A stretch of DNA of 64,000 bases from an uncultured virus (IMG/VR IMGVR_UViG_2579779073_000002) (IMGVR_UViG_2579779073_000002); one strand, 5' to 3'; counted from the stretch's first letter, positions 21,724-40,083 are shown. Made by a program: numbers and translations. The notes: generated from the letters alone by a model not told the origin.

Positions 21724-21746
21724 ATGATAAATATGTGTTTTGGAGA

Positions 21747-21818
21747 CTGCCCGGGCTGGGATCGAACCAGCGATCTCTTGATTAACAGTCAATTATTCTA
21801 CCGCTGAACTACCGGGCA
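21747..21818 (-). tRNA. Satellite-encoded tRNA-Asn(GTT)
   Basis: Acceptor TGCCCGG/CCGGGCA, anticodon loop CTGTTAA, T-loop TTCGATC; one mismatch at the top of the anticodon stem. Confidence 0.75.
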
Positions 21819-21886
21819 ATGAGTACTCTATATTTATACCATATAATTTTATGAGAGTAAAGTTAAACTTATGAGGAAGTGATTAG

Positions 21887-22156
21887 TTGGCAGTGACTGT
21901 AGACGACATTAAACTAAGCCTGCGAATTGATGTAACTGAAGATGATCCAATGATTCAAAGTTATTTAGACGCCGCCAAGGACTACGTGCAGACGGCTGTT
22001 AGCAAGAATGAAGATCTGACTGTCTACAAACAGTACGATTTTGCGGTGTCCTTGCTGACACAATTCTGGTATCAAAACAGAGTAACTGATATGACAAAGA
22101 CACCGTATCAAGTTGTCAGTATGATTCAACAACTGCGTGGAAAAATTGAAGCTTAG
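21887..22156 (+). CDS. Head-tail connector (HK97 gp6-like)
   Basis: IKLSLRID..EDD..IQSYLDAA...WYQNR. Confidence 0.85.
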   Translation: MAVTVDDIKLSLRIDVTEDDPMIQSYLDAAKDYVQTAVSKNEDLTVYKQYDFAVSLLTQFWYQNRVTDMTKTPYQVVSMIQQLRGKIEA

Positions 22157-22303
22157 GTTTGACATATGAAATGATTGGTACTAAAATTAATGTTGTAATT
22201 TGTCCTAATATTACTTTCCCGTAATAACGGCGATTATCATATCCTATAGTGAGAGGCTCTCCCCCGAGCCTCTTTTTTATACATATATCTGGGATCAGAA
22301 AGT

Positions 22304-22684
22304 GTGATTCCGATGCGTCAAGATGTTAAGAAAATTCGTAATTTATTGAAGCAATATGCCAAACTAAAACGTGATTTGACGGCTTTTAATCAAGTTTCCA
22401 GCCCCTCATTCGATGGAGTGTCAAGCCATAGCAGCCGAAACGGCGCTGAAAGCCGCCTGATAAACCATGTTGACCTGTCTTACCAGCTAAAAGAAGTCGA
22501 AGACGCCCTAAATGCAATTGATGATCCACAATATCAATTTATTTTACATGATTACGTTATTGAGAAGCATTTCACCCGCAATGAAGCTTGTAACCAATTA
22601 TCGGTTAGTGTTAGCAAGTTTAATTATATGAAGAATGAAGCATTACACGCTTTTGCAAAATTTTACAGTGATCTAACGGTTTGA
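22304..22684 (+). CDS. ArpU/RinA-like late transcriptional activator
   Basis: VEDALNAIDD...C-terminal HTH...KNEALHAFA. Confidence 0.7.
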   Translation: MIPMRQDVKKIRNLLKQYAKLKRDLTAFNQVSSPSFDGVSSHSSRNGAESRLINHVDLSYQLKEVEDALNAIDDPQYQFILHDYVIEKHFTRNEACNQLSVSVSKFNYMKNEALHAFAKFYSDLTV

Positions 22685-22765
22685 ATGCTACTATAGCCCA
22701 ACTTCAACAATTTTACTGTATAATTAATAATGTGCAGTTAAATATTTACTGGAGTGTCCTTGTAA

Positions 22766-23071
22766 ATGAGTTATTTCATTAAAAAATGGTTTTTCGAAGT
22801 TACTGTAAATATTACATTGTTGATTATTCCAGCATATTTGATAACGTGTAGCATATTACAATATGGCCGCATGGCTTTCAGCTTGTCTATGCCGGTGACT
22901 GTTTATGGGCTAAATTTATTAGCGTTTAACTTTATGATTCTGTCAGTATTTGACTTTATTCAGTGGCCGTTTGATTATCATGAACCTAAAACTATAAGAA
23001 AGGTTATTTTTGTGATACACATTACTATTGCAGTCATTGCCTTGATAATAAGCGTTAGACTAATGGCCTAA
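22766..23071 (+). CDS. Accessory 3-TM membrane protein
   Basis: Three hydrophobic segments; AT-rich; upstream TATAAT. Confidence 0.6.
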   Translation: MSYFIKKWFFEVTVNITLLIIPAYLITCSILQYGRMAFSLSMPVTVYGLNLLAFNFMILSVFDFIQWPFDYHEPKTIRKVIFVIHITIAVIALIISVRLMA

Positions 23072-23160
23072 CGAAAAAAACTGCTAACCAAAGTTGGCTA
23101 ACAGTCACTACCCCGCGCAAGTATTAAGTCACTGGAAACAGTGGCTTTTTTGTTATATTT

Positions 23161-23182
23161 TTGGCTGTCCTTTTGGCTGACT
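23161..23182. repeat. Probable integrase arm-type site, right copy
   Basis: Identical to 9211-9232. Confidence 0.7.
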
Positions 23183-23281
23183 TTTAGTGAAAAGAGATGA
23201 CAATTAATGATAAACTAAAGTAATAAAAAAGCTGCAATCACGGTGTTTTTGACAACCAATGATAACAGCTGATAACGAATA

Positions 23282-23354
23282 TTGGGTATACTGGGCTCGA
23301 ACCAGTAAATTACGGATTCAGAGTCCGCTGCCTTACCAATTTGGCGAATACCCA
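23282..23354 (-). tRNA. tRNA-Gln(CTG); 3' end is the satellite att core
   Basis: Acceptor TGGGTAT/ATACCCA, anticodon loop CTCTGAA, T-loop TTCGAGC. Confidence 0.9.
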
Positions 23355-23473
23355 ATAACAACTACTTAATAGTAACTTTTCCAGCAAATACTGTCAAGAC
23401 TTTGCTGAAACTTTGTGTCTATTTTTTGCATTTTTGCTTGAATATCGTATCAGTTGGTGGCTAAACTAGTTAA

Positions 23474-23695
23474 ATGGAAGGTGAGTGTATGTCGAAGTCA
23501 GAATTAGATCATTTATTCGATCATCTGCGACAACAATTGATCGTATGGGCGGTCACGGCCATCGGATTAGCAGTTATGCGCAGCTTTTTGTTACCCCAAT
23601 TATTGACTTTCGTTTTTTGGTGTAGTGTGGCCTACTGTTTGCTCTTATTCGTTGGTTTAGTTGTTGTGACGATTTTTAGGTGGCAAAAATCTTAA
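23474..23695 (+). CDS. Small host membrane protein between the two tRNAs
   Basis: Two TM helices; GAAGGTG RBS suggests a start at the second Met. Confidence 0.6.
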   Translation: MEGECMSKSELDHLFDHLRQQLIVWAVTAIGLAVMRSFLLPQLLTFVFWCSVAYCLLLFVGLVVVTIFRWQKS

Positions 23696-23701
23696 TTATA
23701 T

Positions 23702-23730
23702 TTGACAAGCCGCTTATCATTCGGTAAGAT
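23702..23730 (+). promoter_or_regulatory. Sigma-A promoter of tRNA-Glu
   Basis: TTGACA-N17-TAAGAT. Confidence 0.75.
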
Positions 23731-23744
23731 AATAAATGAATTTG

Positions 23745-23817
23745 TGCCCGCTGGTCAAATTGGTTAAGACGTCGCCCTCTCAAGGCGGAGTTACGGGTTC
23801 GATCCCCGTGCGGGTGA
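23745..23817 (+). tRNA. tRNA-Glu(CTC); probable prophage attL at its 3' end
   Basis: Anticodon loop CTCTCAA, T-loop TTCGATC; integrase converges 230 bp downstream. Confidence 0.9.
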
Positions 23818-24046: not shown

Positions 24047-25168
24047 TTAAAATCCTTCGTCCATTAGCTCGGTAGCCTTCTTATCTGACACGCCGTTTTC
24101 TTCTTCAATAAGATGGACGTAGGTGTTAACGGTCGTTTCTAGTTTTTGATGTCGAAGGCGATGTTGAACATAGGGAAGGGACTCATGATTTAAGATAAGA
24201 ATCGAAGCGTGTGTGTGCCTCATGGCGTGTGTTGTAACTTTGTTGATCTTTAGACGGGTACAAATACGTCCTAGCTCTTCGTTTGCATTCCCATTGCCCA
24301 CGATTTTTCCTAGTTTAGACCAAAATACGAGGTTCTTAGGATTCTTCATTTCGTGTAGTTCTAAATAATCTTTCTGTGTGATGCGATAGGCCCTCATAAA
24401 ACGACAGTAGGCGGGCCCTATGGTTATATCTCCATCGGCCTGTCCATTTCCCTTAGTTGGACGAAAATTCTGTCTACGGGCGTCCCACTGCTGTTTAATG
24501 TGAACTATTCCATTATTCAAATCCAAATTATCCCACGTCAGACCAGCAGCTTCCTCGAACCTGGTTCCAGTTTCTAATTGAAACAGCATCATCAGCATAG
24601 TCATGTGGTCATAATCAGCTGTTTTAATGAGGTATTTACGCAGCTTCTTATAATCTGACAACGTCAAATACTTTTCCTCTACGGGCTTAGGAGGGCGTCC
24701 AGTGACGTGCGCCTTGTAAGCAAAGTCACGTTTTAGAATACCATCAGCTACGGCGTCCTTGATTGCAGTGTGTACTTGTTGATGAAGCTTGTGAGATGTG
24801 GCAATTCCGTGACTGCGGCCAAATTCATTCAGGAACTTCTGGTAATCTTGGCGTTTAATTGAGCTCATAGGTTTATCCTTAAAATAGGCAGAGACGTGGC
24901 GCCAGTTGCCCATATATAGCTCGTGGGTATGACGCGATACGCCGTCAGTTTTGTAAATTCTGATCCAATCAAGAAAGTAGTGCTTTAGACTCTCGGTGCT
25001 ACGTGATAAGTCAGCACCTTCCAGCAGAGCATTTTTAGTTTTAGTTTCCCACTCAACAGCGTCGGTTTTGCGCTTTTCTAAATGGGTAACCGATTTATAA
25101 TTACCGTCATCATCCTTATAAGAGACACGGGCTTGCCATTTACCATTATTAAGTTTGGTTACTGACAT
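24047..25168 (-). CDS. int: Prophage tyrosine integrase
   Basis: TGTRFEE, HAMRHTHAS, RLRHQKLETTVNTY. Confidence 0.95.
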   Translation of the reverse strand: MSVTKLNNGKWQARVSYKDDDGNYKSVTHLEKRKTDAVEWETKTKNALLEGADLSRSTESLKHYFLDWIRIYKTDGVSRHTHELYMGNWRHVSAYFKDKPMSSIKRQDYQKFLNEFGRSHGIATSHKLHQQVHTAIKDAVADGILKRDFAYKAHVTGRPPKPVEEKYLTLSDYKKLRKYLIKTADYDHMTMLMMLFQLETGTRFEEAAGLTWDNLDLNNGIVHIKQQWDARRQNFRPTKGNGQADGDITIGPAYCRFMRAYRITQKDYLELHEMKNPKNLVFWSKLGKIVGNGNANEELGRICTRLKINKVTTHAMRHTHASILILNHESLPYVQHRLRHQKLETTVNTYVHLIEEENGVSDKKATELMDEGF

Positions 25169-25315: not shown

Positions 25316-25540
25316 GTGAAGGTTATGAAGAAGGTAGTAGCATATCTTATGTTAACGTCAATGGAGTCGACATTCATTGCATTAATACTGTGGCCGCTAA
25401 TTCATAGCTATATTCCCTTTGCCATTTGGATATTTTCCATTCTTGTTATTCCAATATTTATTTCTCTGGTTCCTGATCATTCTCTGGCTTTTCCTTCGAT
25501 TTTAGGTTTTCGTGTGAAATTACGGTTCCAACATCCTTGA
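25316..25540 (+). CDS. Small 2-TM protein, antisense to the lysogeny arm
   Basis: AAAGGAAG RBS; hydrophobic; overlaps the 3' end of 25458-26552. Confidence 0.45.
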   Translation: MKVMKKVVAYLMLTSMESTFIALILWPLIHSYIPFAIWIFSILVIPIFISLVPDHSLAFPSILGFRVKLRFQHP

Positions 25541-26552
25541 TCTGAGGTTTGATATTCTTCACTTCATCAGGAACATTTTTTGTTTCTTGTTTGAGACGTT
25601 TAAGTTCGGCCTTCTTTTGTATGTGCGAGATTCGGTAATCATCCCACCAATTCAGAATGCCTTTTTTCTTCCCCTCTTTCCCAATTACTAAAGAGATTAA
25701 AGTAACAATTCCACCAAAAGTAATTACTTGATTCCCTCCAAGACTAGCTACTGTGTGAATGATGTTTATAATTGCTTGTATGTTTTCCTGACCAGTTATA
25801 AATCCTAAGGTGCCCGGACAATGAACGTCTGCTTGTAGTTCTACTTGGTGTAAATAATTAGACTGTTCGTCTTTTGCCATTTCGACAATACCTTGCCAAT
25901 TTGCAAGAGTTAAATCGTCTTCTAATGTGGTGTAGACGGTTAAATGAATTTTTTTATGTTTTTGAAAAAGAGGAAATATTAAAGGATCAATGTATTCCGC
26001 GTAACTTGAAATGTTAAAAATTGCTTGATGTGCAGACAAAATCCAATAAAGTTCGCCGGGGAGTGATGATCTTTGTATTGTTTTCATCCATGTAACGTTT
26101 CGCCGTTTTAGATTTTGATCGACTTTATATTGAATTCCATTGGGTCCAGAGTTTTCTTTTTTTGTTCTTAATTTTGATTTATCAGCATCGAATGGATCTC
26201 CTGTAATAACACCTATTGCAAAATAATCAGAACTTTTACCAGGCGTAAGAACAACATCTCCAATTTTCATGTTATTAATAAATTCAAAACATTGAGACGA
26301 GGCAATCGTCTGCCAATGTTTGGTTTGATGGGGATAAGAATCAATGTACATTTGATGGATATCTGGTTTTTTTAGACCATCTTTGGGGCTATCATCGGAG
26401 TGGATTGACTCGATAGTTACCTGATTATGTGCAATCGAAATGAAAGAATTTTCAATGTAGTCATCTAGATATTTTCCACCATCAGCACGAACTAACCAGT
26501 AACTTGTGTCATCTGGAATTGTTAAAATTTCAAAAGTACCTTTATTATTCAT
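25458..26552 (-). CDS. 364-aa accessory protein with EVE/PUA-like N-terminal domain (candidate defence protein)
   Basis: YWLVRADGG, FINNMKIGDVVLTP and RNVTW motifs resemble N-termini of modification-dependent restriction proteins; AT-rich. Confidence 0.55.
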   Translation of the reverse strand: MNNKGTFEILTIPDDTSYWLVRADGGKYLDDYIENSFISIAHNQVTIESIHSDDSPKDGLKKPDIHQMYIDSYPHQTKHWQTIASSQCFEFINNMKIGDVVLTPGKSSDYFAIGVITGDPFDADKSKLRTKKENSGPNGIQYKVDQNLKRRNVTWMKTIQRSSLPGELYWILSAHQAIFNISSYAEYIDPLIFPLFQKHKKIHLTVYTTLEDDLTLANWQGIVEMAKDEQSNYLHQVELQADVHCPGTLGFITGQENIQAIINIIHTVASLGGNQVITFGGIVTLISLVIGKEGKKKGILNWWDDYRISHIQKKAELKRLKQETKNVPDEVKNIKPQIKDVGTVISHENLKSKEKPENDQEPEK

Positions 26553-26619: not shown

Positions 26620-26690
26620 AGCGAGTGACGGGAATCGGACCCGCGACTACAGCTTGGAAGGCTGTCGTTTTACCACTAAACTACACTCGC
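26620..26690 (-). tRNA. tRNA-Gly(TCC), variant T-loop TCCGATT
   Basis: Acceptor GCGAGTG/CACTCGC, anticodon arm ACAGC-CTTCCAA-GCTGT. Confidence 0.8.
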
Positions 26691-26747
26691 ATAAGAGCCA
26701 ACAATGGGTTTTGGTCGGCTCAACAGTTAATTAGAATGTACCTACAA

Positions 26748-26924
26748 TTATTTTTGCTTAAGACGATCAACCATATCTTTTTCCATTCCTTGGATTATGC
26801 GGCCACATTCTTTCCTTGAGTAGCTATCTTTTGTAAGATAAACGAAAGCATACAGATTAATAAAAGAGGTTAAGTCATTAGTAATGTTATCTATGAGTTC
26901 ATATTTCGACATATCTTTATCCAT
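26748..26924 (-). CDS. 58-aa hypothetical protein (MDKDMSKYELIDNITNDLTSFINLYAFVYLTKDSYSRKECGRIIQGMEKDMVDRLKQK)
   Basis: AAGAAGGT RBS; fills the gap between two tRNA-like elements. Confidence 0.6.
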   Translation of the reverse strand: MDKDMSKYELIDNITNDLTSFINLYAFVYLTKDSYSRKECGRIIQGMEKDMVDRLKQK

Positions 26925-26948
26925 AATCTTACCTTCTTTCTTTTAAAA

Positions 26949-27034
26949 GTGGGTGGCAGGGATTGAACCTACATAACAATTTCAAACGAGAGAGAAGGGC
27001 TGAAATCGTTATTCTACCATTGAATTACGCCCAC
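26949..27034 (-). ncRNA. tRNA-scaffold RNA A, 38-nt insert replacing the anticodon arm
   Basis: Acceptor GTGGGCG/CACCCAC, D-arm ATTC-AATGGTA-GAAT, T-arm GTAGG-TTCAATC-CCTGC. Confidence 0.7.
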
Positions 27035-27082
27035 GTGATGTAGGTACTAAAGTAAGCGGTAGTATGGGTTATTTGTTACAAT

Positions 27083-27173
27083 GCGAGCGGCAGGAGTCGA
27101 ACCTACATCAATATAGGATGTGAGACCTATGAGAAGTGTGCAAATAATTGTTCTACCGTTGAACTACACTCGC
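27083..27173 (-). ncRNA. tRNA-scaffold RNA B, 43-nt insert
   Basis: Acceptor GCGAGTG/CGCTCGC, D-arm GTTC-AACGGTA-GAAC, T-arm GTAGG-TTCGACT-CCTGC. Confidence 0.75.
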
Positions 27174-27198
27174 GTGAAAGCCCAATATGGGGTTGCTG

Positions 27199-27480
27199 TT
27201 ATACTTTTTTAATTGCGTCGCCGTAAACTATGATACTTTGTGCAGATAGCGATGCGTTACCACTGGGAGCTCGGGAAATACGATAGTTAGAGATTGCCGT
27301 ACCGCCAAGTTTAATAGCTTCTGACCACAAATCTTTTTGGGCTTTTTCTATTGCTGATCTAATCTCGCCTTTACCTAATGTTCCTGCATTAGCAATTCCT
27401 GTGACAATTCCAATTGGAACATAGTCGTCTGGGGTTTGACCAGTAATGATGAATTCTGGTTTTCGTTTCAACAATCCCAT
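27199..27480 (-). CDS. YbjQ/UPF0145 heavy-metal-binding-like protein
   Basis: PIGIVTG...KAQKDLWSEAIKLGGTAISNYRI...VYGDAIK; GAGGTG RBS before ATG 27480. Confidence 0.65.
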   Translation of the reverse strand: MGLLKRKPEFIITGQTPDDYVPIGIVTGIANAGTLGKGEIRSAIEKAQKDLWSEAIKLGGTAISNYRISRAPSGNASLSAQSIIVYGDAIKKV

Positions 27481-27535
27481 TTTGTCCACCTCTTAGTTGT
27501 AGTAATAATAATTTATTCCTCAGTAATGAGAAATA

Positions 27536-27588
27536 AATTATAAGTAATCCCGACCCTTAGCTTTTCATGACATCCTGACTGGTCAATG
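27536..27588 (-). repeat. 53-bp trailer motif 3' of scaffold C, repeated at 28469-28521 after scaffold D
   Basis: ATTGACCAGTCAGGATGTCAT(G/T)AAAAGCTA...GGGA(T/C)TACTTATAATT. Confidence 0.8.
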
Positions 27589-27672
27589 CGAGTGGCAGGA
27601 GTCGAACCTGCATCTGTTAGTATCTAGTTAGCAATTCAAAGGAGCACCGTTCTACCGTTGAACTACGCTCGC
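27588..27672 (-). ncRNA. tRNA-scaffold RNA C, 37-nt insert
   Basis: Acceptor GCGAGCG/CACTCGC, same D-arm, T-arm GCAGG-TTCGACT-CCTGC. Confidence 0.75.
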
Positions 27673-27701
27673 GTGAAAGCCCCGATGAGGGCTTGGACCT
27701 G

Positions 27702-28421
27702 TTATGGTCTTGCGTATTGATTGCCCCGTGGTGCTGGCTTGGCACCAGAATTATCAGCAGCACTCTGGGTCATATATTGGTAATTACCTGGATTTTTAAC
27801 GCTGGTGTAGTACTTATTGGAGTCTGATACAAAAACCATACCAGAAGCAGCAGTAGTCCAACCACCATTTTGTGTATAGGAAGCATTGTCTGTTTTACTT
27901 GTTTCGCTCGCTTTTTTAGCTGATGACGAGCTAGCAACTAATGATTCTGAACTGGCTTTAGCTATTGAAGAGCTTTCTGCCTCAGACTGCTTTTTGCTTG
28001 ATTCGGATTCAGAACTAGCCATACTCTCTGAATTCTCTTTGGATTCAGACTTGGAGGCAGCAATACTTTCAGATTCTTCTTTGCTACTTGATAGGGCGCT
28101 TTCAGATGACTCCTTCTCCTTAATAGAGTTAGCTTTACTGATACTAGCCTTTCTTTTCGATGCATCTTTTGCTGAACTTTTCTTTGCTTTGCTACTTGAG
28201 GCTGTATCTGACTGTGATGCACTCGATCTTGCTGTGCCAGAAGGGGCGGCCCAAACCGTTAATGCTAAGAATAGGATTGTTAGTCCTACTGAGATTAAGG
28301 TGTATTTTTTGTATGGACGATTAACACCTGTTTTTGTGAAATGATGAATTCCCCCACGAATTGAAAAGTAAGCTAACGCAATTAAAGATACAAGAAACAT
28401 AAATGTAAAAAATATATCCAA
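27702..28421 (-). CDS. Membrane-anchored Ser/Lys/Glu-rich protein with small C-terminal domain (superinfection-exclusion-like architecture)
   Basis: Two N-terminal TM helices, Ser-rich linker; GGAGG RBS, TTG start. Confidence 0.7.
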   Translation of the reverse strand: MDIFFTFMFLVSLIALAYFSIRGGIHHFTKTGVNRPYKKYTLISVGLTILFLALTVWAAPSGTARSSASQSDTASSSKAKKSSAKDASKRKASISKANSIKEKESSESALSSSKEESESIAASKSESKENSESMASSESESSKKQSEAESSSIAKASSESLVASSSSAKKASETSKTDNASYTQNGGWTTAASGMVFVSDSNKYYTSVKNPGNYQYMTQSAADNSGAKPAPRGNQYARP

Positions 28422-28520
28422 AGTAATCCCTCCAAAATATGTTATTCCCCAATAACAATAATTCCCCGAATTATAAGTAGTCCCAACTCCTAGCTTTTAA
28501 TGACATCCTGACTGGTCAAT

Positions 28521-28612
28521 GTGAGTGGCAGGAGTTGAACCCGCATGGCAATAAGAAATAAAGGAAGGGTATCCCATAAGAAGTTGCTGTTCTGCCGTTG
28601 AACTACACCCAC
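28521..28612 (-). ncRNA. tRNA-scaffold RNA D, 44-nt insert
   Basis: Acceptor GTGGGTG/CACTCAC, D-arm GTTC-AACGGCA-GAAC, T-arm GCGGG-TTCAACT-CCTGC. Confidence 0.7.
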
Positions 28613-28624
28613 GTTTGTAATAAT

Positions 28625-28752
28625 TTAGTGATGAAGCTTTTTATAGAGAAAATATGCAACTAATGCTGATATAATTGCCACAAATAATAGCTCAGTGCTC
28701 CACTTAATAGAGGACATGACTTTTTAAAAAAATAAGTTAAAGAATTGAACAT
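28625..28752 (-). pseudogene. Small membrane peptide gene split at a T7A5 run (MFNSLTYFFK / VMSSIKWSTELLFVAIISALVAYFLYKKLHH)
   Basis: AGGAG RBS; one added base would give a 42-aa single-TM peptide. Confidence 0.4.
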
Positions 28753-28792
28753 TGGTGATTCTCCTGTGTTTGATTGAGTTAGGAATCTCTAT

Positions 28793-28875
28793 GCGAGCGG
28801 CAGGAGTCGAACCTGCATTGGAAGGTAGGCTATATTTGAATTAAAGGAACCATTCTACCGTTGAACTACGCTCGC
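28793..28875 (-). ncRNA. tRNA-scaffold RNA E, 35-nt insert
   Basis: Acceptor GCGAGCG/CGCTCGC, D-arm GTTC-AACGGTA-GAAT, T-arm GCAGG-TTCGACT-CCTGC. Confidence 0.75.
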
Positions 28876-29026
28876 GTGAAAGCCCAATCAAGGGCCAGTT
28901 ATAAATTGCTATTTCATACCAGATTGAGTTTTACCACTCAATGTTCCATTGGTGAAAGTAACGTTAAAGTTCGCACCTAATACGCCTTTGACACCTGAGG
29001 TATATCCTTCAAAATAGTGCATTGTG

Positions 29027-29395
29027 TTATTGTTGTGGTTGATTAAAGTTCTTTAGGGAAGCTAAATATAAAGAACCACCAATAATTGCGATAATTCCGC
29101 CAATCCAACCTAAGAATGGAATAAGTGCGATTGCGCCGCCGACAATTAGTAAAACACCTGGTGCAGTATTTACTCTTGAATCGCCTTTATAATAAATTAA
29201 TGCAATGATGCCTAGTGCTAAAATGGCAATTTTCAAAATGTTTAATAAAGCCACTGTACCTGATGTGCTTGTTGCTGATCCAGTTGCCGCATCGCTTAGG
29301 GCGCCACCAGCGACAAACCAGCCCCCAAATAATAAGATGATTCCGCCAACTAATCCCACGATTCCGTTGGTAAGCGCTAAATTCTTTGTCTTCAT
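29027..29395 (-). CDS. Gly-rich multi-TM membrane protein
   Basis: GAGGAGG RBS; 3-4 TM helices. Confidence 0.75.
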   Translation of the reverse strand: MKTKNLALTNGIVGLVGGIILLFGGWFVAGGALSDAATGSATSTSGTVALLNILKIAILALGIIALIYYKGDSRVNTAPGVLLIVGGAIALIPFLGWIGGIIAIIGGSLYLASLKNFNQPQQ

Positions 29396-30553: not shown

Positions 30554-30967
30554 TTAATCTCCGTCGAATGGTACCCCGTATTGATAGGACAGTTCTCTGT
30601 ATGAATAGGGAATATGGCCATTCTCCTCAATAAACAACATTCCCATCAATCCAACTGAAAATTCATCAGCTTCACGTTCAAACTTAGAATGTCCATGTTT
30701 AACGGAAGTGTAGTACCCAATCAGTCCCTCATGGAATATAACGTGTCCCAGCTCATGACCGAGAATAAAATACTGCTGTGACGTATGTTTAATAGAATTA
30801 TTGAGTAGTATGATAGGCTCTTGGTTGTCATAAGCATTTTTACCCAGAGGCATTGCCCCAAAATCACACCATTCCACTTGTATGTTAAGCTTTTCCGCAA
30901 TTACAAACGGGTCCGCTGTGTGATAACGATTGACAATAGTTTTAACGATATCTTTTACTCTATCCAT
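30554..30967 (-). CDS. ImmA/IrrE-family metalloprotease
   Basis: FILGHELGH...EREADEF; adjacent to the repressor. Confidence 0.9.
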   Translation of the reverse strand: MDRVKDIVKTIVNRYHTADPFVIAEKLNIQVEWCDFGAMPLGKNAYDNQEPIILLNNSIKHTSQQYFILGHELGHVIFHEGLIGYYTSVKHGHSKFEREADEFSVGLMGMLFIEENGHIPYSYRELSYQYGVPFDGD

Positions 30968-30978
30968 AAGTACAACTC

Positions 30979-31341
30979 CTAATCATGCTTGTGGCGTTTC
31001 CAGAATATTGTTGCCATGGCCACACGCACTTGTTGTTTCTCTTCTTCAGTAAGATCTTCACCCCCATAGGTCATCGAACCCTCATTTGCTTCAAGAAAAT
31101 CCTTCAGGTCAATGGTATCTTTCTTGGTTGCCCATTTTGGCGTGCCATTTTTTCCAAGCAAGTAGTCAGTTGTCACGGAAAAACGATCTGCAATTTTAGA
31201 AAGTGTTTCAAGATCAGGCTGTCGTTTTCCTTGTTCATAGGAAGCCAGTGTTGTTTTGGCCATGCCCAATTGCATTGCTAATCTCTCTTGCGTTAGACCA
31301 GCTTCTCTTTTTCGTAATTCTTTAAGGCGTTCAGCAAACAT
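30979..31341 (-). CDS. CI-like XRE repressor
   Basis: RLKELRK...TLASYEQGKRQPD; AAGGAGG RBS before ATG 31341. Confidence 0.9.
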   Translation of the reverse strand: MFAERLKELRKREAGLTQERLAMQLGMAKTTLASYEQGKRQPDLETLSKIADRFSVTTDYLLGKNGTPKWATKKDTIDLKDFLEANEGSMTYGGEDLTEEEKQQVRVAMATIFWKRHKHD

Positions 31342-31373
31342 TGATAGGCCTCCTTCATTAATTATAAGATTAC

Positions 31374-31492
31374 TACGCATAATGCGTATTTTGTACAGAA
31401 ATATAAAAAATACTCGTTTAGAGTATTTTTGTGTTGACTAAATACGCGAATTGTATTATATTAATAAGCATCAAAGGTACGCGAAACGTATT
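31374..31492. promoter_or_regulatory. Main lysis/lysogeny switch with imperfect TACGC..CGTA-type palindromic operators
   Basis: TACGCATAATGCGTA, TACTCGTTTAGAGTA, TACGCGAATTGTA and TACGCGAAACGTA between the divergent HTH genes. Confidence 0.6.
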
Positions 31493-32552: not shown

Positions 32553-32753
32553 ATGACTTACACATTAAGAATTCGAGAATTGCGGCAGAAATTGGGACTC
32601 AGCCAATCAGCACTAGCTGATAAAAGTGGAGTACCGCAAACGACGATTAGCGCAATTGAGTCAGGTACTAATTTGACATACGAGACGGCGAAAAAGCTTG
32701 CCCGTGCATTAGGAGTTTCCACGGATGAATTATCAGTGGAGGTGACTAAGTAA
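32553..32753 (+). CDS. Cro-like HTH protein
   Basis: LSQSALADKSGVPQTTISAIESG. Confidence 0.85.
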   Translation: MTYTLRIRELRQKLGLSQSALADKSGVPQTTISAIESGTNLTYETAKKLARALGVSTDELSVEVTK

Positions 32754-39747: not shown

Positions 39748-39869
39748 CCGAACTTTTTCCGAACTCAAGCCGGACTTCATAGCAATAAATTGGTGGTAAA
39801 TTAGTAGTATCGATAATTGGTTAGGGTGACAAATAAACGTTTTTCTGATAGCTCTAATTGATTATTATT

Positions 39870-39942
39870 GTGGCCTTAGCTCAGTTGGTAGAGCACCTGA
39901 CTGTTAATCAGGTTGTCGCTGGTTCGAGTCCAGCAGGCTACG
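39870..39942 (+). tRNA. Phage tRNA-Asn(GTT)
   Basis: GTGGCCT/AGGCTAC, CCTGA-CTGTTAA-TCAGG, TTCGAGT. Confidence 0.9.
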
Positions 39943-40011
39943 TTAGACGGGCACAGATGTACAGTTTGTGTTGCCTCCTTGATTAAGTTGATATGATGGC
40001 CCGCCTATTAA

Positions 40012-40083
40012 GCAGATATGATCTAATTGGCAAGATGGCGGTCTCCAAAACCGTCTATGTTGGTTCAAATCCAGCTATCTGTG
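40012..40083 (+). tRNA. Phage tRNA-Trp(CCA)
   Basis: GCAGATA/TATCTGT, GCGGT-CTCCAAA-ACCGT, TTCAAAT. Confidence 0.8.

Follow-up and report, generated by a model that had tools for sequence, protein, structure and literature searches.

The lysogeny module of a prophage from a plant-associated lactic acid bacterium carries an array of RNA genes that combine a constant tRNA body with an exchangeable segment at the position of the anticodon arm. The array lies in a stretch of 64,000 nucleotides (nt) from an uncultured virus (IMG/VR IMGVR_UViG_2579779073_000002), hereafter called the window, where it occupies positions 26620-28875 of the minus strand and consists of one normal tRNA-Gly(UCC) and five tRNA-like elements, A to E, of 84-93 nt each. 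These elements keep the acceptor, D and T arms, and their anticodon arm is swapped for inserts of 35-44 nt. We confirmed that the feature is real, and the literature searched, mostly at the level of abstracts, yielded no earlier description of such elements. With moderate confidence, we propose that they are phage or bacterial counterparts of the t-elements of plant mitochondria and that RNase P and RNase Z excise them from the lysogeny transcript.

ARAGORN and the Rfam tRNA family RF00005 together placed the six features, on the minus strand, where an earlier note on this DNA had put them. The five insert sequences quoted in that note were letter-perfect; all of them terminate in AT and all carry pyrimidine tracts. 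The tRNA-Gly(UCC) gene (26620-26690, 71 nt) is canonical (ARAGORN tRNA-Gly(tcc), RF00005 72 bits), has no encoded CCA and is the final RNA gene of the array, on the integrase side. Element A (26948-27034, 87 nt, insert 38 nt) has the acceptor stem GUGGGCG/CACCCAC with the mismatch C6.A67, and folding predicts that its insert forms a stem of 10-11 base pairs with a CCCUUCUCUCUC loop. Element B (27082-27173, 92 nt, insert 43 nt) lies 47 nt upstream of A, and the gap contains no open reading frame (ORF). The scaffold of element C (27587-27672, 86 nt, insert 37 nt) also shows the C6.A67 mismatch, and its insert contains CUCCUUUGA. All pairs are formed in the acceptor stem of element D (28520-28612, 93 nt, insert 44 nt), which reads GUGGGUG/CACUCAC, and the insert of D has a basal stem of 4-5 base pairs. 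Element E (28792-28875, 84 nt) carries an insert of 35 nt with UUCCUUUAAUU and CUUCCAA.

RF00005 detected 6/6 features. The scores of A to E (38.6, 47.2, 46.5, 40.0 and 46.0 bits, respectively) compare with a gathering threshold of 29, and the alignments run end to end except for 15-34 nt skipped inside the anticodon arm. Of the elements, ARAGORN recognized C, labeled 'Lys(ttt)', and E, labeled 'Leu(taa)', but made no call for A, B and D. At positions 27-43, none of the elements A to E forms the 5-bp stem and 7-nt loop (U33, purine 37) of a canonical anticodon arm. Between 26400 and 29400 no Rfam family besides RF00005 was found at E<=1, including no C4-type family, and hence the absence of a matching family beyond generic tRNA, anticipated earlier, was borne out.

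The array belongs to a larger family. Relatives were sought with an IUPAC pattern comprising a D arm and a T arm 28-58 nt apart, by which divergent relatives are missed. This pattern gave 29 matches in 12 of 401 Lactobacillaceae species genomes (9/22 in the genus of the window), and a reversed control pattern gave 0 matches in the same 401 genomes, indicating that the pattern picks up more than chance. At least 141 provirus stretches of IMG/VR matched as well. Among the species representatives of GTDB there were 14 matching stretches, nearly all from Lactiplantibacillus: six Lactiplantibacillus species, single cases in Lentilactobacillus and Secundilactobacillus, a Pediococcus plasmid, a Lactobacillaceae metagenome-assembled genome (MAG) and one Clostridia MAG. 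The family thus resides mainly in Lactiplantibacillus prophages. We extracted 340 instances, overlapping loci being counted more than once; among them are 70 distinct inserts, which fall into 21 clusters (insert types), and 48 distinct scaffolds. Arrays reach five elements per operon. Type C is the most frequent (85 instances, 17 variants) and has a homologue in phage Sha1; type E accounts for 50 instances with 7 variants, and the insert of A recurs as an identical copy in 42 instances. Another 20 matches to the motif of the 5' half had no pattern-matching 3' half within 400 nt.

Covariation in the acceptor stem, which the search pattern leaves free, supports a fold at the RNA level. Over the 48 distinct scaffolds, 96.0% of the pair cells are standard, compared to 34-55% with slid partners, and the covariation score is 0.159 vs. 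0.112 in shuffles, with 0/500 shuffles as high. Double-sided changes were found at 5/16 pairs. Pair 2:71 is CG in 34 scaffolds, UA in 4, GC in 2 and UG in 2; pair 6:67 is CG in 26, UG in 9, UA in 7 and GC in 2; pair 4:69 is AU in 43, GC in 2 and GU in 2. One sub-family carries a different acceptor helix, GGAAGG/CCUUCC, on otherwise identical arms. Compensatory changes had been claimed for the copies in the window, and they exist there at 2:71, 4:69 and 6:67, double-sided in A and D, whereas C6.A67 in A and C speaks against the claim. Mismatched scaffolds of this kind look like 5' and 3' halves joined by recombination.

The acceptor, D and T arms and the elbow nucleotides are the parts of a tRNA that are read by RNase P and RNase Z. 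Kept in the elements are the 7-bp acceptor stem, the D arm, the T arm, the elbow nucleotides and purine 26, along with U48 in most types; the columns of U8, A14, G18 G19 and the T-arm GGTTC are invariant, which is partly built in by the search pattern. Judged by the RF00005 matches, the invariant columns and the 96.0% pairing, the shape recognized by both enzymes appears to be retained, as had been suggested before. No element has an encoded CCA, and a T follows the discriminator in 46/48 scaffolds; a U after the discriminator in the absence of an encoded CCA is the form that RNase Z cuts in Bacillota. The first base of the insert is a purine, as at tRNA position 26, and the last is a U in most types. 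This terminal U48 would fit a 15:48 tertiary pair with the invariant A15, and such pairing would account for all five inserts ending in AT. The T-arm motif GGTTCRANYCC and an acceptor stem sit on a non-canonical cloverleaf, as in t-elements.

Across four genomes of the genus the nearest canonical tRNA is the host tRNA-Gly(GCC). The scaffold had been described as common to the neighboring tRNA-Gly(UCC). This is true of the acceptor stem, but not of the D and T arms, which are nearer to the tRNA-Gly(GCC) type. We propose that the elements derive from a tRNA-Gly-type gene. Other tRNAs of the window were considered as scaffold donors and rejected, as they are not similar to the scaffold.

The flanks of the elements show recurrent features. 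Directly in front of C, a leader (27673-27697, minus strand) consists of a GC hairpin (AAGCCCUCAUCGGGGCUU) followed by UUCAC and abuts the predicted RNase P site; leaders of the same kind precede B (27174-27197) and E (28876-28899) on the same strand. Most leaders of the family contain a hairpin that terminates 4-7 nt ahead of +1, and among 137 distinct instances with enough flank the leader ends in ...TTCAC in 44 and in ...AACAT in 41. Behind C lies a conserved trailer of 28 nt (UUGACCAGUCAGGAUGUCAUGAAAAGCU, 27559-27586, minus strand), which recurs behind D (28492-28519, minus strand); within the window as well as in phages Sha1 and H1-Guo, it follows elements with several types of insert. 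The trailer is composed of UUGACC, about 10 nt, GUCAU and AAAAGCU, and could form a hairpin of 4 bp (UGAC/GUCA).

The array lies between the integrase and the ImmA protease/helix-turn-helix (HTH) repressor pair, in agreement with its earlier assignment to the lysogeny arm. The module comprises, in this order, the integrase, a 364-aa protein, tRNA-Gly, small ORFs alternating with the elements, the ImmA-type protease and the HTH repressor, and it is co-directional (minus strand) from repressor to integrase. Phages Sha1 and H1-Guo have elements of the same kind, likewise between integrase and repressor. In 128 of the 137 distinct instances a long ORF ends no more than 150 nt upstream, mostly at 10-50 nt. 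Going downstream, 101 instances are followed first by an ORF start (mostly after 23-56 nt), 18 by another element and 12 by a tRNA, and 6 have nothing within 300 nt. In other prophages elements often abut, head to tail, genuine tRNA-Met(CAU) and tRNA-Gly(UCC) genes with spacers of 3-14 nt. Room for an own promoter and terminator is rarely available around the elements. Since the spacers between these co-directional genes are short, the elements are likely transcribed within a polycistronic lysogeny transcript.

The inserts behave as discrete, conserved and exchangeable cassettes rather than neutral filler, because variation within a type is low and types move between contexts. Between types, inserts show 0.50 differences per site and scaffolds 0.07-0.09; within a type, inserts have a diversity of 0.096, and scaffold positions not fixed by the pattern have 0.077. 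One and the same insert type can be met in different flanks, and flanks that are identical can enclose different types; in genome G290, a C-type element occupies the exact site of the window's E. A constant tRNA scaffold with an exchangeable central segment, as the earlier note had described it, is therefore what we see, with combinations of type and flank swapped. Its description of the inserts as mutually unrelated has to be qualified family-wide, where C, E and a third type have the module YCCUUURAAUU in common. Family-wide the inserts measure 33-50 nt, none being shorter, and pyrimidines make up 58% of their bases and G 11%, compared to 23% G in the window. No structure is common to all of them: folding gives basal stems for A, D, G and H, small internal hairpins for some types and an essentially open arm for C, E and c12.

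Several inserts contain anticodon-loop heptamers of genuine tRNAs. Insert D finishes in UUGCCAU (28545-28551), which is also the anticodon loop of the host tRNA-Gly(GCC); the loop of tRNA-Gly(UCC), CUUCCAA, recurs in insert E at 28818-28824; and that of tRNA-Trp in the window, CUCCAAA, in types F and H. On account of these Gly and Trp heptamers in D, E, H and F, we considered introns or anticodon loops that had been displaced, and rejected both: there are no completing stems, and the heptamers vary within types.

In the mechanism that we favor, RNase P would cut at +1, and the upstream mRNA would keep its hairpin a few nt from the new 3' end. RNase Z would cut after the discriminator. The operon would be split into separately stable mRNAs, and tRNA-shaped RNAs of 84-99 nt would be freed. 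Both cleavages are suggested by the shape of the elements. For the variable arm, candidate roles are pairing to purine-rich RNA, nuclease shielding of the exposed loop and protein binding. A comparable logic operates in mitochondrial tRNA punctuation and in MALAT1/mascRNA, where an RNase P cut 5' of a tRNA or tRNA-like fold makes the upstream 3' end; this end is protected by a nearby structure, and RNase Z then frees a small tRNA-shaped RNA. However, the punctuating tRNAs of mitochondria are functional decoders and mascRNA is a single eukaryotic case, and neither has a variable cargo arm. The t-elements of plant mitochondria, reportedly also credited to Hanic-Joyce in 1990, are the closest known kind. 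They are cleaved by RNase P and RNase Z and thereby define 3' and 5' ends of mRNAs, they are tRNA-like, non-canonical cloverleaves with GGTTCRANYCC, and stable t-element RNA can accumulate (Forner et al., 2007, PMC1920247). They share with our elements the tRNA-like fold, this motif and their embedding in longer transcripts beside protein genes. Unlike the phage family they are organellar, single, scattered and degenerate; the phage elements have a near-invariant scaffold, arrays of up to five and discrete exchangeable arms of 33-50 nt, and their processing is deduced.

The RNA sequencing data are sparse but consistent with this proposal. RNA-seq contigs extend from the elements into adjacent genes. 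In run X10, one contig runs into sequencing adapter at 27164 (scaffold position 10 of B), and others do so at 28601 and 28603 (scaffold positions 10-12 of D). Measured from the 5' ends of B and D, these adapter-joined ends lie 9-11 nt inward. In raw reads of run X24, from a related strain and with partial coverage, genuine tRNA-Gly cDNAs end at a 9-nt offset, as at B and D, and cDNA inserts of 40 nt cover tRNA-Gly positions 10-49; the raw-read run X21 gave a single, uninformative read. Contig depth in X10 was 244 upstream of E, 33.6 over E and the peptide gene behind it, 537 over D and the 239-aa gene, 142 over C and the 96-aa gene, and 218 over B, A and the 58-aa gene; in run X1 it went from 458 to 143 at C. 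Such steps fit cleavage at the elements combined with unequal stability of the pieces.

Several observations weigh against the proposal. Most of the RNA evidence comes as assembled contigs, from which neither strand nor true ends can be read. Ends joined to adapter would be expected just as well if transcription started at the element, if reverse transcriptase stopped there or if an antisense RNA were present, and a promoter could explain the 16-fold step in depth at D. Because a sequence pattern defined the family, the conserved D and T arms are in part a circular result, and acceptor mismatches occur among the 48 scaffolds (4 at 6:67, 6 at 2:71 and 5 at 7:66). In the copy of phage H1-Guo the scaffold is decayed and the insert conserved. 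Furthermore, processing alone explains neither the minimum insert of 33 nt nor the depletion of G in the inserts, nor why inserts of one type vary no more than their flanks: in 184 same-type pairs in homologous flanks, divergence was 0.034 in the insert, 0.065 in the leader and 0.044 in the trailer.

A function of the released RNA could be added to the processing model without conflict if the freed arms acted as antisense RNAs, an idea that we regard as tentative and rather unlikely. Here the tRNA scaffold would be a stabilizing and processing chassis, and the pyrimidine-rich arms would pair in trans with Shine-Dalgarno (SD) or start regions and block translation, for example in superinfection immunity. 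Well-known prophage RNAs, P1 C4 and P4 CI, are cut by RNase P out of a longer lysogen transcript and act as antisense RNAs at ribosome-binding regions; unlike our elements, they are not full cloverleaves, and they have their targets in the same phage, whereas for the elements none was found in the prophage part of the window. The base composition of the inserts (11% G, 58% pyrimidine) suits the idea. Their duplex energy to the SD consensus is -9.9 kcal/mol, compared to -8.6 for dinucleotide shuffles (0/500) and -7.0 for random window segments (0/500), and start regions bind better than mid-gene controls (-13.5 vs. -10.9). Types C, G and H contain exact CCUCC or CUCCUUU cores, and F, c11, c19 and K have hairpin loops rich in C. 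That discrete, conserved types move between contexts also accords with guides acting in trans, as does a K-type element that, in other genera, follows mscL and has a strong terminator of its own behind it.

The inserts thus have a compositional affinity for purine-rich RNA. Specificity is another matter. The earlier note had read the inserts as anti-SD guides, and this stands as far as the duplex energy to the SD consensus beats that of shuffles; the longest exact match to the 16S tail, with a motif that we take to be the correct one, is not above dinucleotide shuffles (95/500 reach it), so that the effect is mostly one of composition. Against the 89 start regions of the window the five inserts averaged -14.03, compared to -13.49 for shuffled inserts (standard deviation 0.13), about 0.5 kcal/mol better, but their best targets are no better than those of shuffled inserts. 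When the five inserts were compared with the 64-kb window by short-word BLAST, no non-self match and no complement exceeded 13 nt, and the cognate downstream start region is not preferred (-9.97 vs. -10.44, permutation p = 0.95, 69 pairs). On the same 69 pairs and p = 0.95 we rejected pairing in cis with the start of the next gene. In 50,697 phage records, C and D had no match outside elements (A, B and E were not searched there): D gave only unrelated matches with E>=0.8, and C only the homologous Sha1 element. Moreover, the arms share neither structure nor seed position. No specific target emerged in cis, in the prophage part of the window or, for C and D, in the phage records; the host genome was not scanned. 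On the terms that the earlier note had itself set, the antisense idea is weakened, not refuted, and is weakly supported.

A broader version takes the tRNA body as a plug-in chassis from which host enzymes release a library of cargoes, each type being a trans-acting guide or decoy for a different RNA. Its targets would be start regions of rival phages or host genes, or the crRNA/tracrRNA of Cas9. We consider this unlikely. If it were true, the array would be a modular RNA repertoire for defense or counter-defense, swappable by recombination. Carrying cargo RNA on or next to a tRNA body, which host tRNA enzymes process and stabilize, is known from engineered tRNA scaffolds and from the TMER of MHV68. 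The former are a laboratory design and the latter belong to an animal virus and use the 3' flank, whereas the elements hold their cargo at the position of the anticodon arm, and our literature search, mostly at abstract level, found no natural bacterial array with cargo at that position.

It is improbable that the elements are decaying tRNA-Gly duplicates with no RNA function, kept as homology blocks for recombination of lysogeny cassettes. Chimeric scaffolds with C6.A67, which look like joined halves of different copies, would be expected from such recombination, and so would different types in identical flanks and identical types in different flanks. The degenerate H1-Guo copy and the odd and pseudo-tRNAs annotated in L. 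plantarum (PMC5637513) point in the same direction. Decay, however, does not account for the compensatory acceptor changes, among them a wholly different helix, or for 96% pairing over 48 scaffolds. It should also leave canonical 22-nt or shrunken linkers, of which there are none, all inserts having 33-50 nt. The non-random depletion of G, the conservation of inserts to at least the level of the flanks and the placement in tRNA operons also argue against it.

More improbable still is a role in evasion of CRISPR systems, in which some insert types would mimic the host's type II-A CRISPR repeat or the anti-repeat of the tracrRNA and blunt Cas9 as an RNA anti-CRISPR by pairing with pre-crRNA or tracrRNA. 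RNA anti-CRISPRs (Racr, solitary repeat units) are short non-coding RNAs of mobile elements that share CRISPR-repeat sequence; Racrs mimic whole repeats and have no tRNA scaffold, whereas the elements show partial matches of 8-19 nt in a minority of types, with borderline statistics. An 11-mer of type I (ACUACUAUUCA) recurs with a period of 66 bp in the CRISPR arrays of five genomes of the genus. The repeat concerned is 36 nt long, and its cas9 locus has the tracrRNA between cas9 and cas1; by array polarity and tracrRNA locus, the type I insert lies in the anti-repeat sense. The summed score of the 21 types to the antisense repeat was 284, compared to 251 +/- 13 for 1000 shuffled repeats, 10 of which reach it; the summed scores for repeat family F1 are attained by 8-10 shuffles in 1000, which is borderline. 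Seven types score at least 16 where 2.8 are expected (19/1000), types I, G and c15 each have p ~0.002-0.004, several other types have 8-19 nt in common with the repeat in either orientation, and types I and J are found in genomes with this CRISPR.

This likeness to a CRISPR repeat is suggestive, but the hypothesis was formed post hoc, after the match had been seen, and the tests are not independent, as the types with ACUACUAU in common are related. No signal comes from four further repeat families of the genus (p >= 0.06), and none of the window's inserts A to E matches individually (p 0.16-0.80, repeat F1a). Nor are elements and cas9 associated: each is present in 9/22 genomes and both in 3, with about 3.7 expected.

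The elements are almost certainly not functional in decoding, as tRNAs with a long variable arm (Lys-UUU, Leu-UAA, Trp-CCA, SeC-UCA or suppressor) would be: ARAGORN does assign anticodons to some types, and the anticodon-like stem of type C has 4/5 bp with variable positions that stay pairable, but the putative anticodon loop of C has C33 and G37, E has only 3/5 stem pairs, ARAGORN is silent on A, B and D, the arms are structurally heterogeneous, and the 'anticodon' shifts from UUU to UAU among variants of one type. A functional insert in place of the anticodon arm, on an acceptor/T-arm domain, is also found in transfer-messenger RNA (tmRNA, SsrA), which is known for its G3.U70 alanine identity pair, its pseudoknots and its tag reading frame. 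The elements differ in pair 3:70, which is GC in 44/48 scaffolds (GU in 2, other in 2), and in having inserts of 33-50 nt with no common reading frame, and ARAGORN reported no tmRNA in the window.

Gene-finder labels of this kind probably mean that the elements have been seen before and mislabeled. A genome note on L. plantarum lists tRNA-Sup-TTA, tRNA-SeC-TCA, tRNA-OTHER and four pseudo-tRNAs (PMC5637513), and the ARAGORN labels given to the elements are of the same kind as that list. Labels such as Lys, Leu, Trp, SeC, suppressor, 'other' and pseudo skew the tRNA inventories of these genomes.

If the processing model is true, it extends the logic of tRNA punctuation and t-elements from organelles to a bacteriophage operon. 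Accessory genes could then be kept at very different levels from one transcript, with no promoter and terminator for each. The array would also be a natural precedent for engineered tRNA scaffolds and polycistronic tRNA-guide designs, and would offer a set of parts for lactic acid bacteria. Should the arms turn out to be guides or decoys, they would represent a new class of phage riboregulators.

All genes of the surrounding module lie on the minus strand. One end is formed by the tyrosine integrase (24047-25168; PF00589 3.3e-22, phrog_1), the other by the HTH repressor (30979-31380; PF01381 8.1e-17) together with the ImmA/IrrE-type metalloprotease (30554-30967; PF06114 4.2e-12); a divergent cro-like gene starts at 32553. 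The 364-aa protein (25458-26552) matches the PADLOC candidate defense family PDC-S02 (E = 4.7e-15) and phrog_10226 and has no Pfam or NCBIfam match. It was considered as an RNA partner of the elements and rejected, as there is only the PDC-S02 match and no link to the elements was found. Directly downstream of A is a 58-aa ORF (26748-26924, phrog_15564, function unknown), whose family is found downstream of at least five different insert types in other prophages. A 96-aa ORF between C and B (27199-27489) has no family match. Between D and C lies a 239-aa ORF (27702-28421) with weak low-complexity matches only; in two RNA-seq assemblies no other segment of the array is as abundant. The gene between E and D (28625-28752) encodes a small hydrophobic peptide, 41 aa in relatives. 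In the window, a T/A run near 28720 has 2 bases too many, which break the frame; the RNA-seq contigs of two runs lack them. Upstream of E, a 122-aa ORF (29027-29395) terminates in the hairpin leader of E.

A promoter consensus scan gave 22 sites where 20 are expected, with none convincing upstream of D on the minus strand. One sigma-70-like match (28852-28880, minus strand, TTCACG-17-TAGAAT, 9/12) is made up of the leader end and the D-arm of E and so overlaps the 5' half of this element; the -10 hexamer TAGAAT arises only in scaffold variants ending in GAAT. The window has five more tRNA genes, at 21745-23817 and 39869-40083. Those for tRNA-Asn, Gln(CUG) and Glu(CUC) are found immediately beyond the integrase and have flanks that resemble promoters and terminators, and tRNA-Asn and Trp genes lie in the early region. 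The anticodons CUG and CUC are, we presume, unusual for Bacillota.

Some relatives of the array stand in other surroundings. In another genus a K-type element is situated between the 3' hairpin of mscL and a strong terminator, and one Lactiplantibacillus prophage has an mscL-like gene after a D-type element. The record OP650937.1 ('Hujiaoplasma phage zrk29-2', UNVERIFIED_ORG, with a Tenericutes host attributed) contains an element, a tRNA-Met, a further element and a gene for a small membrane protein. The opening residues of this protein match those of the Sha1 gene, and OP650937.1 therefore resembles a Lactiplantibacillus-type phage.

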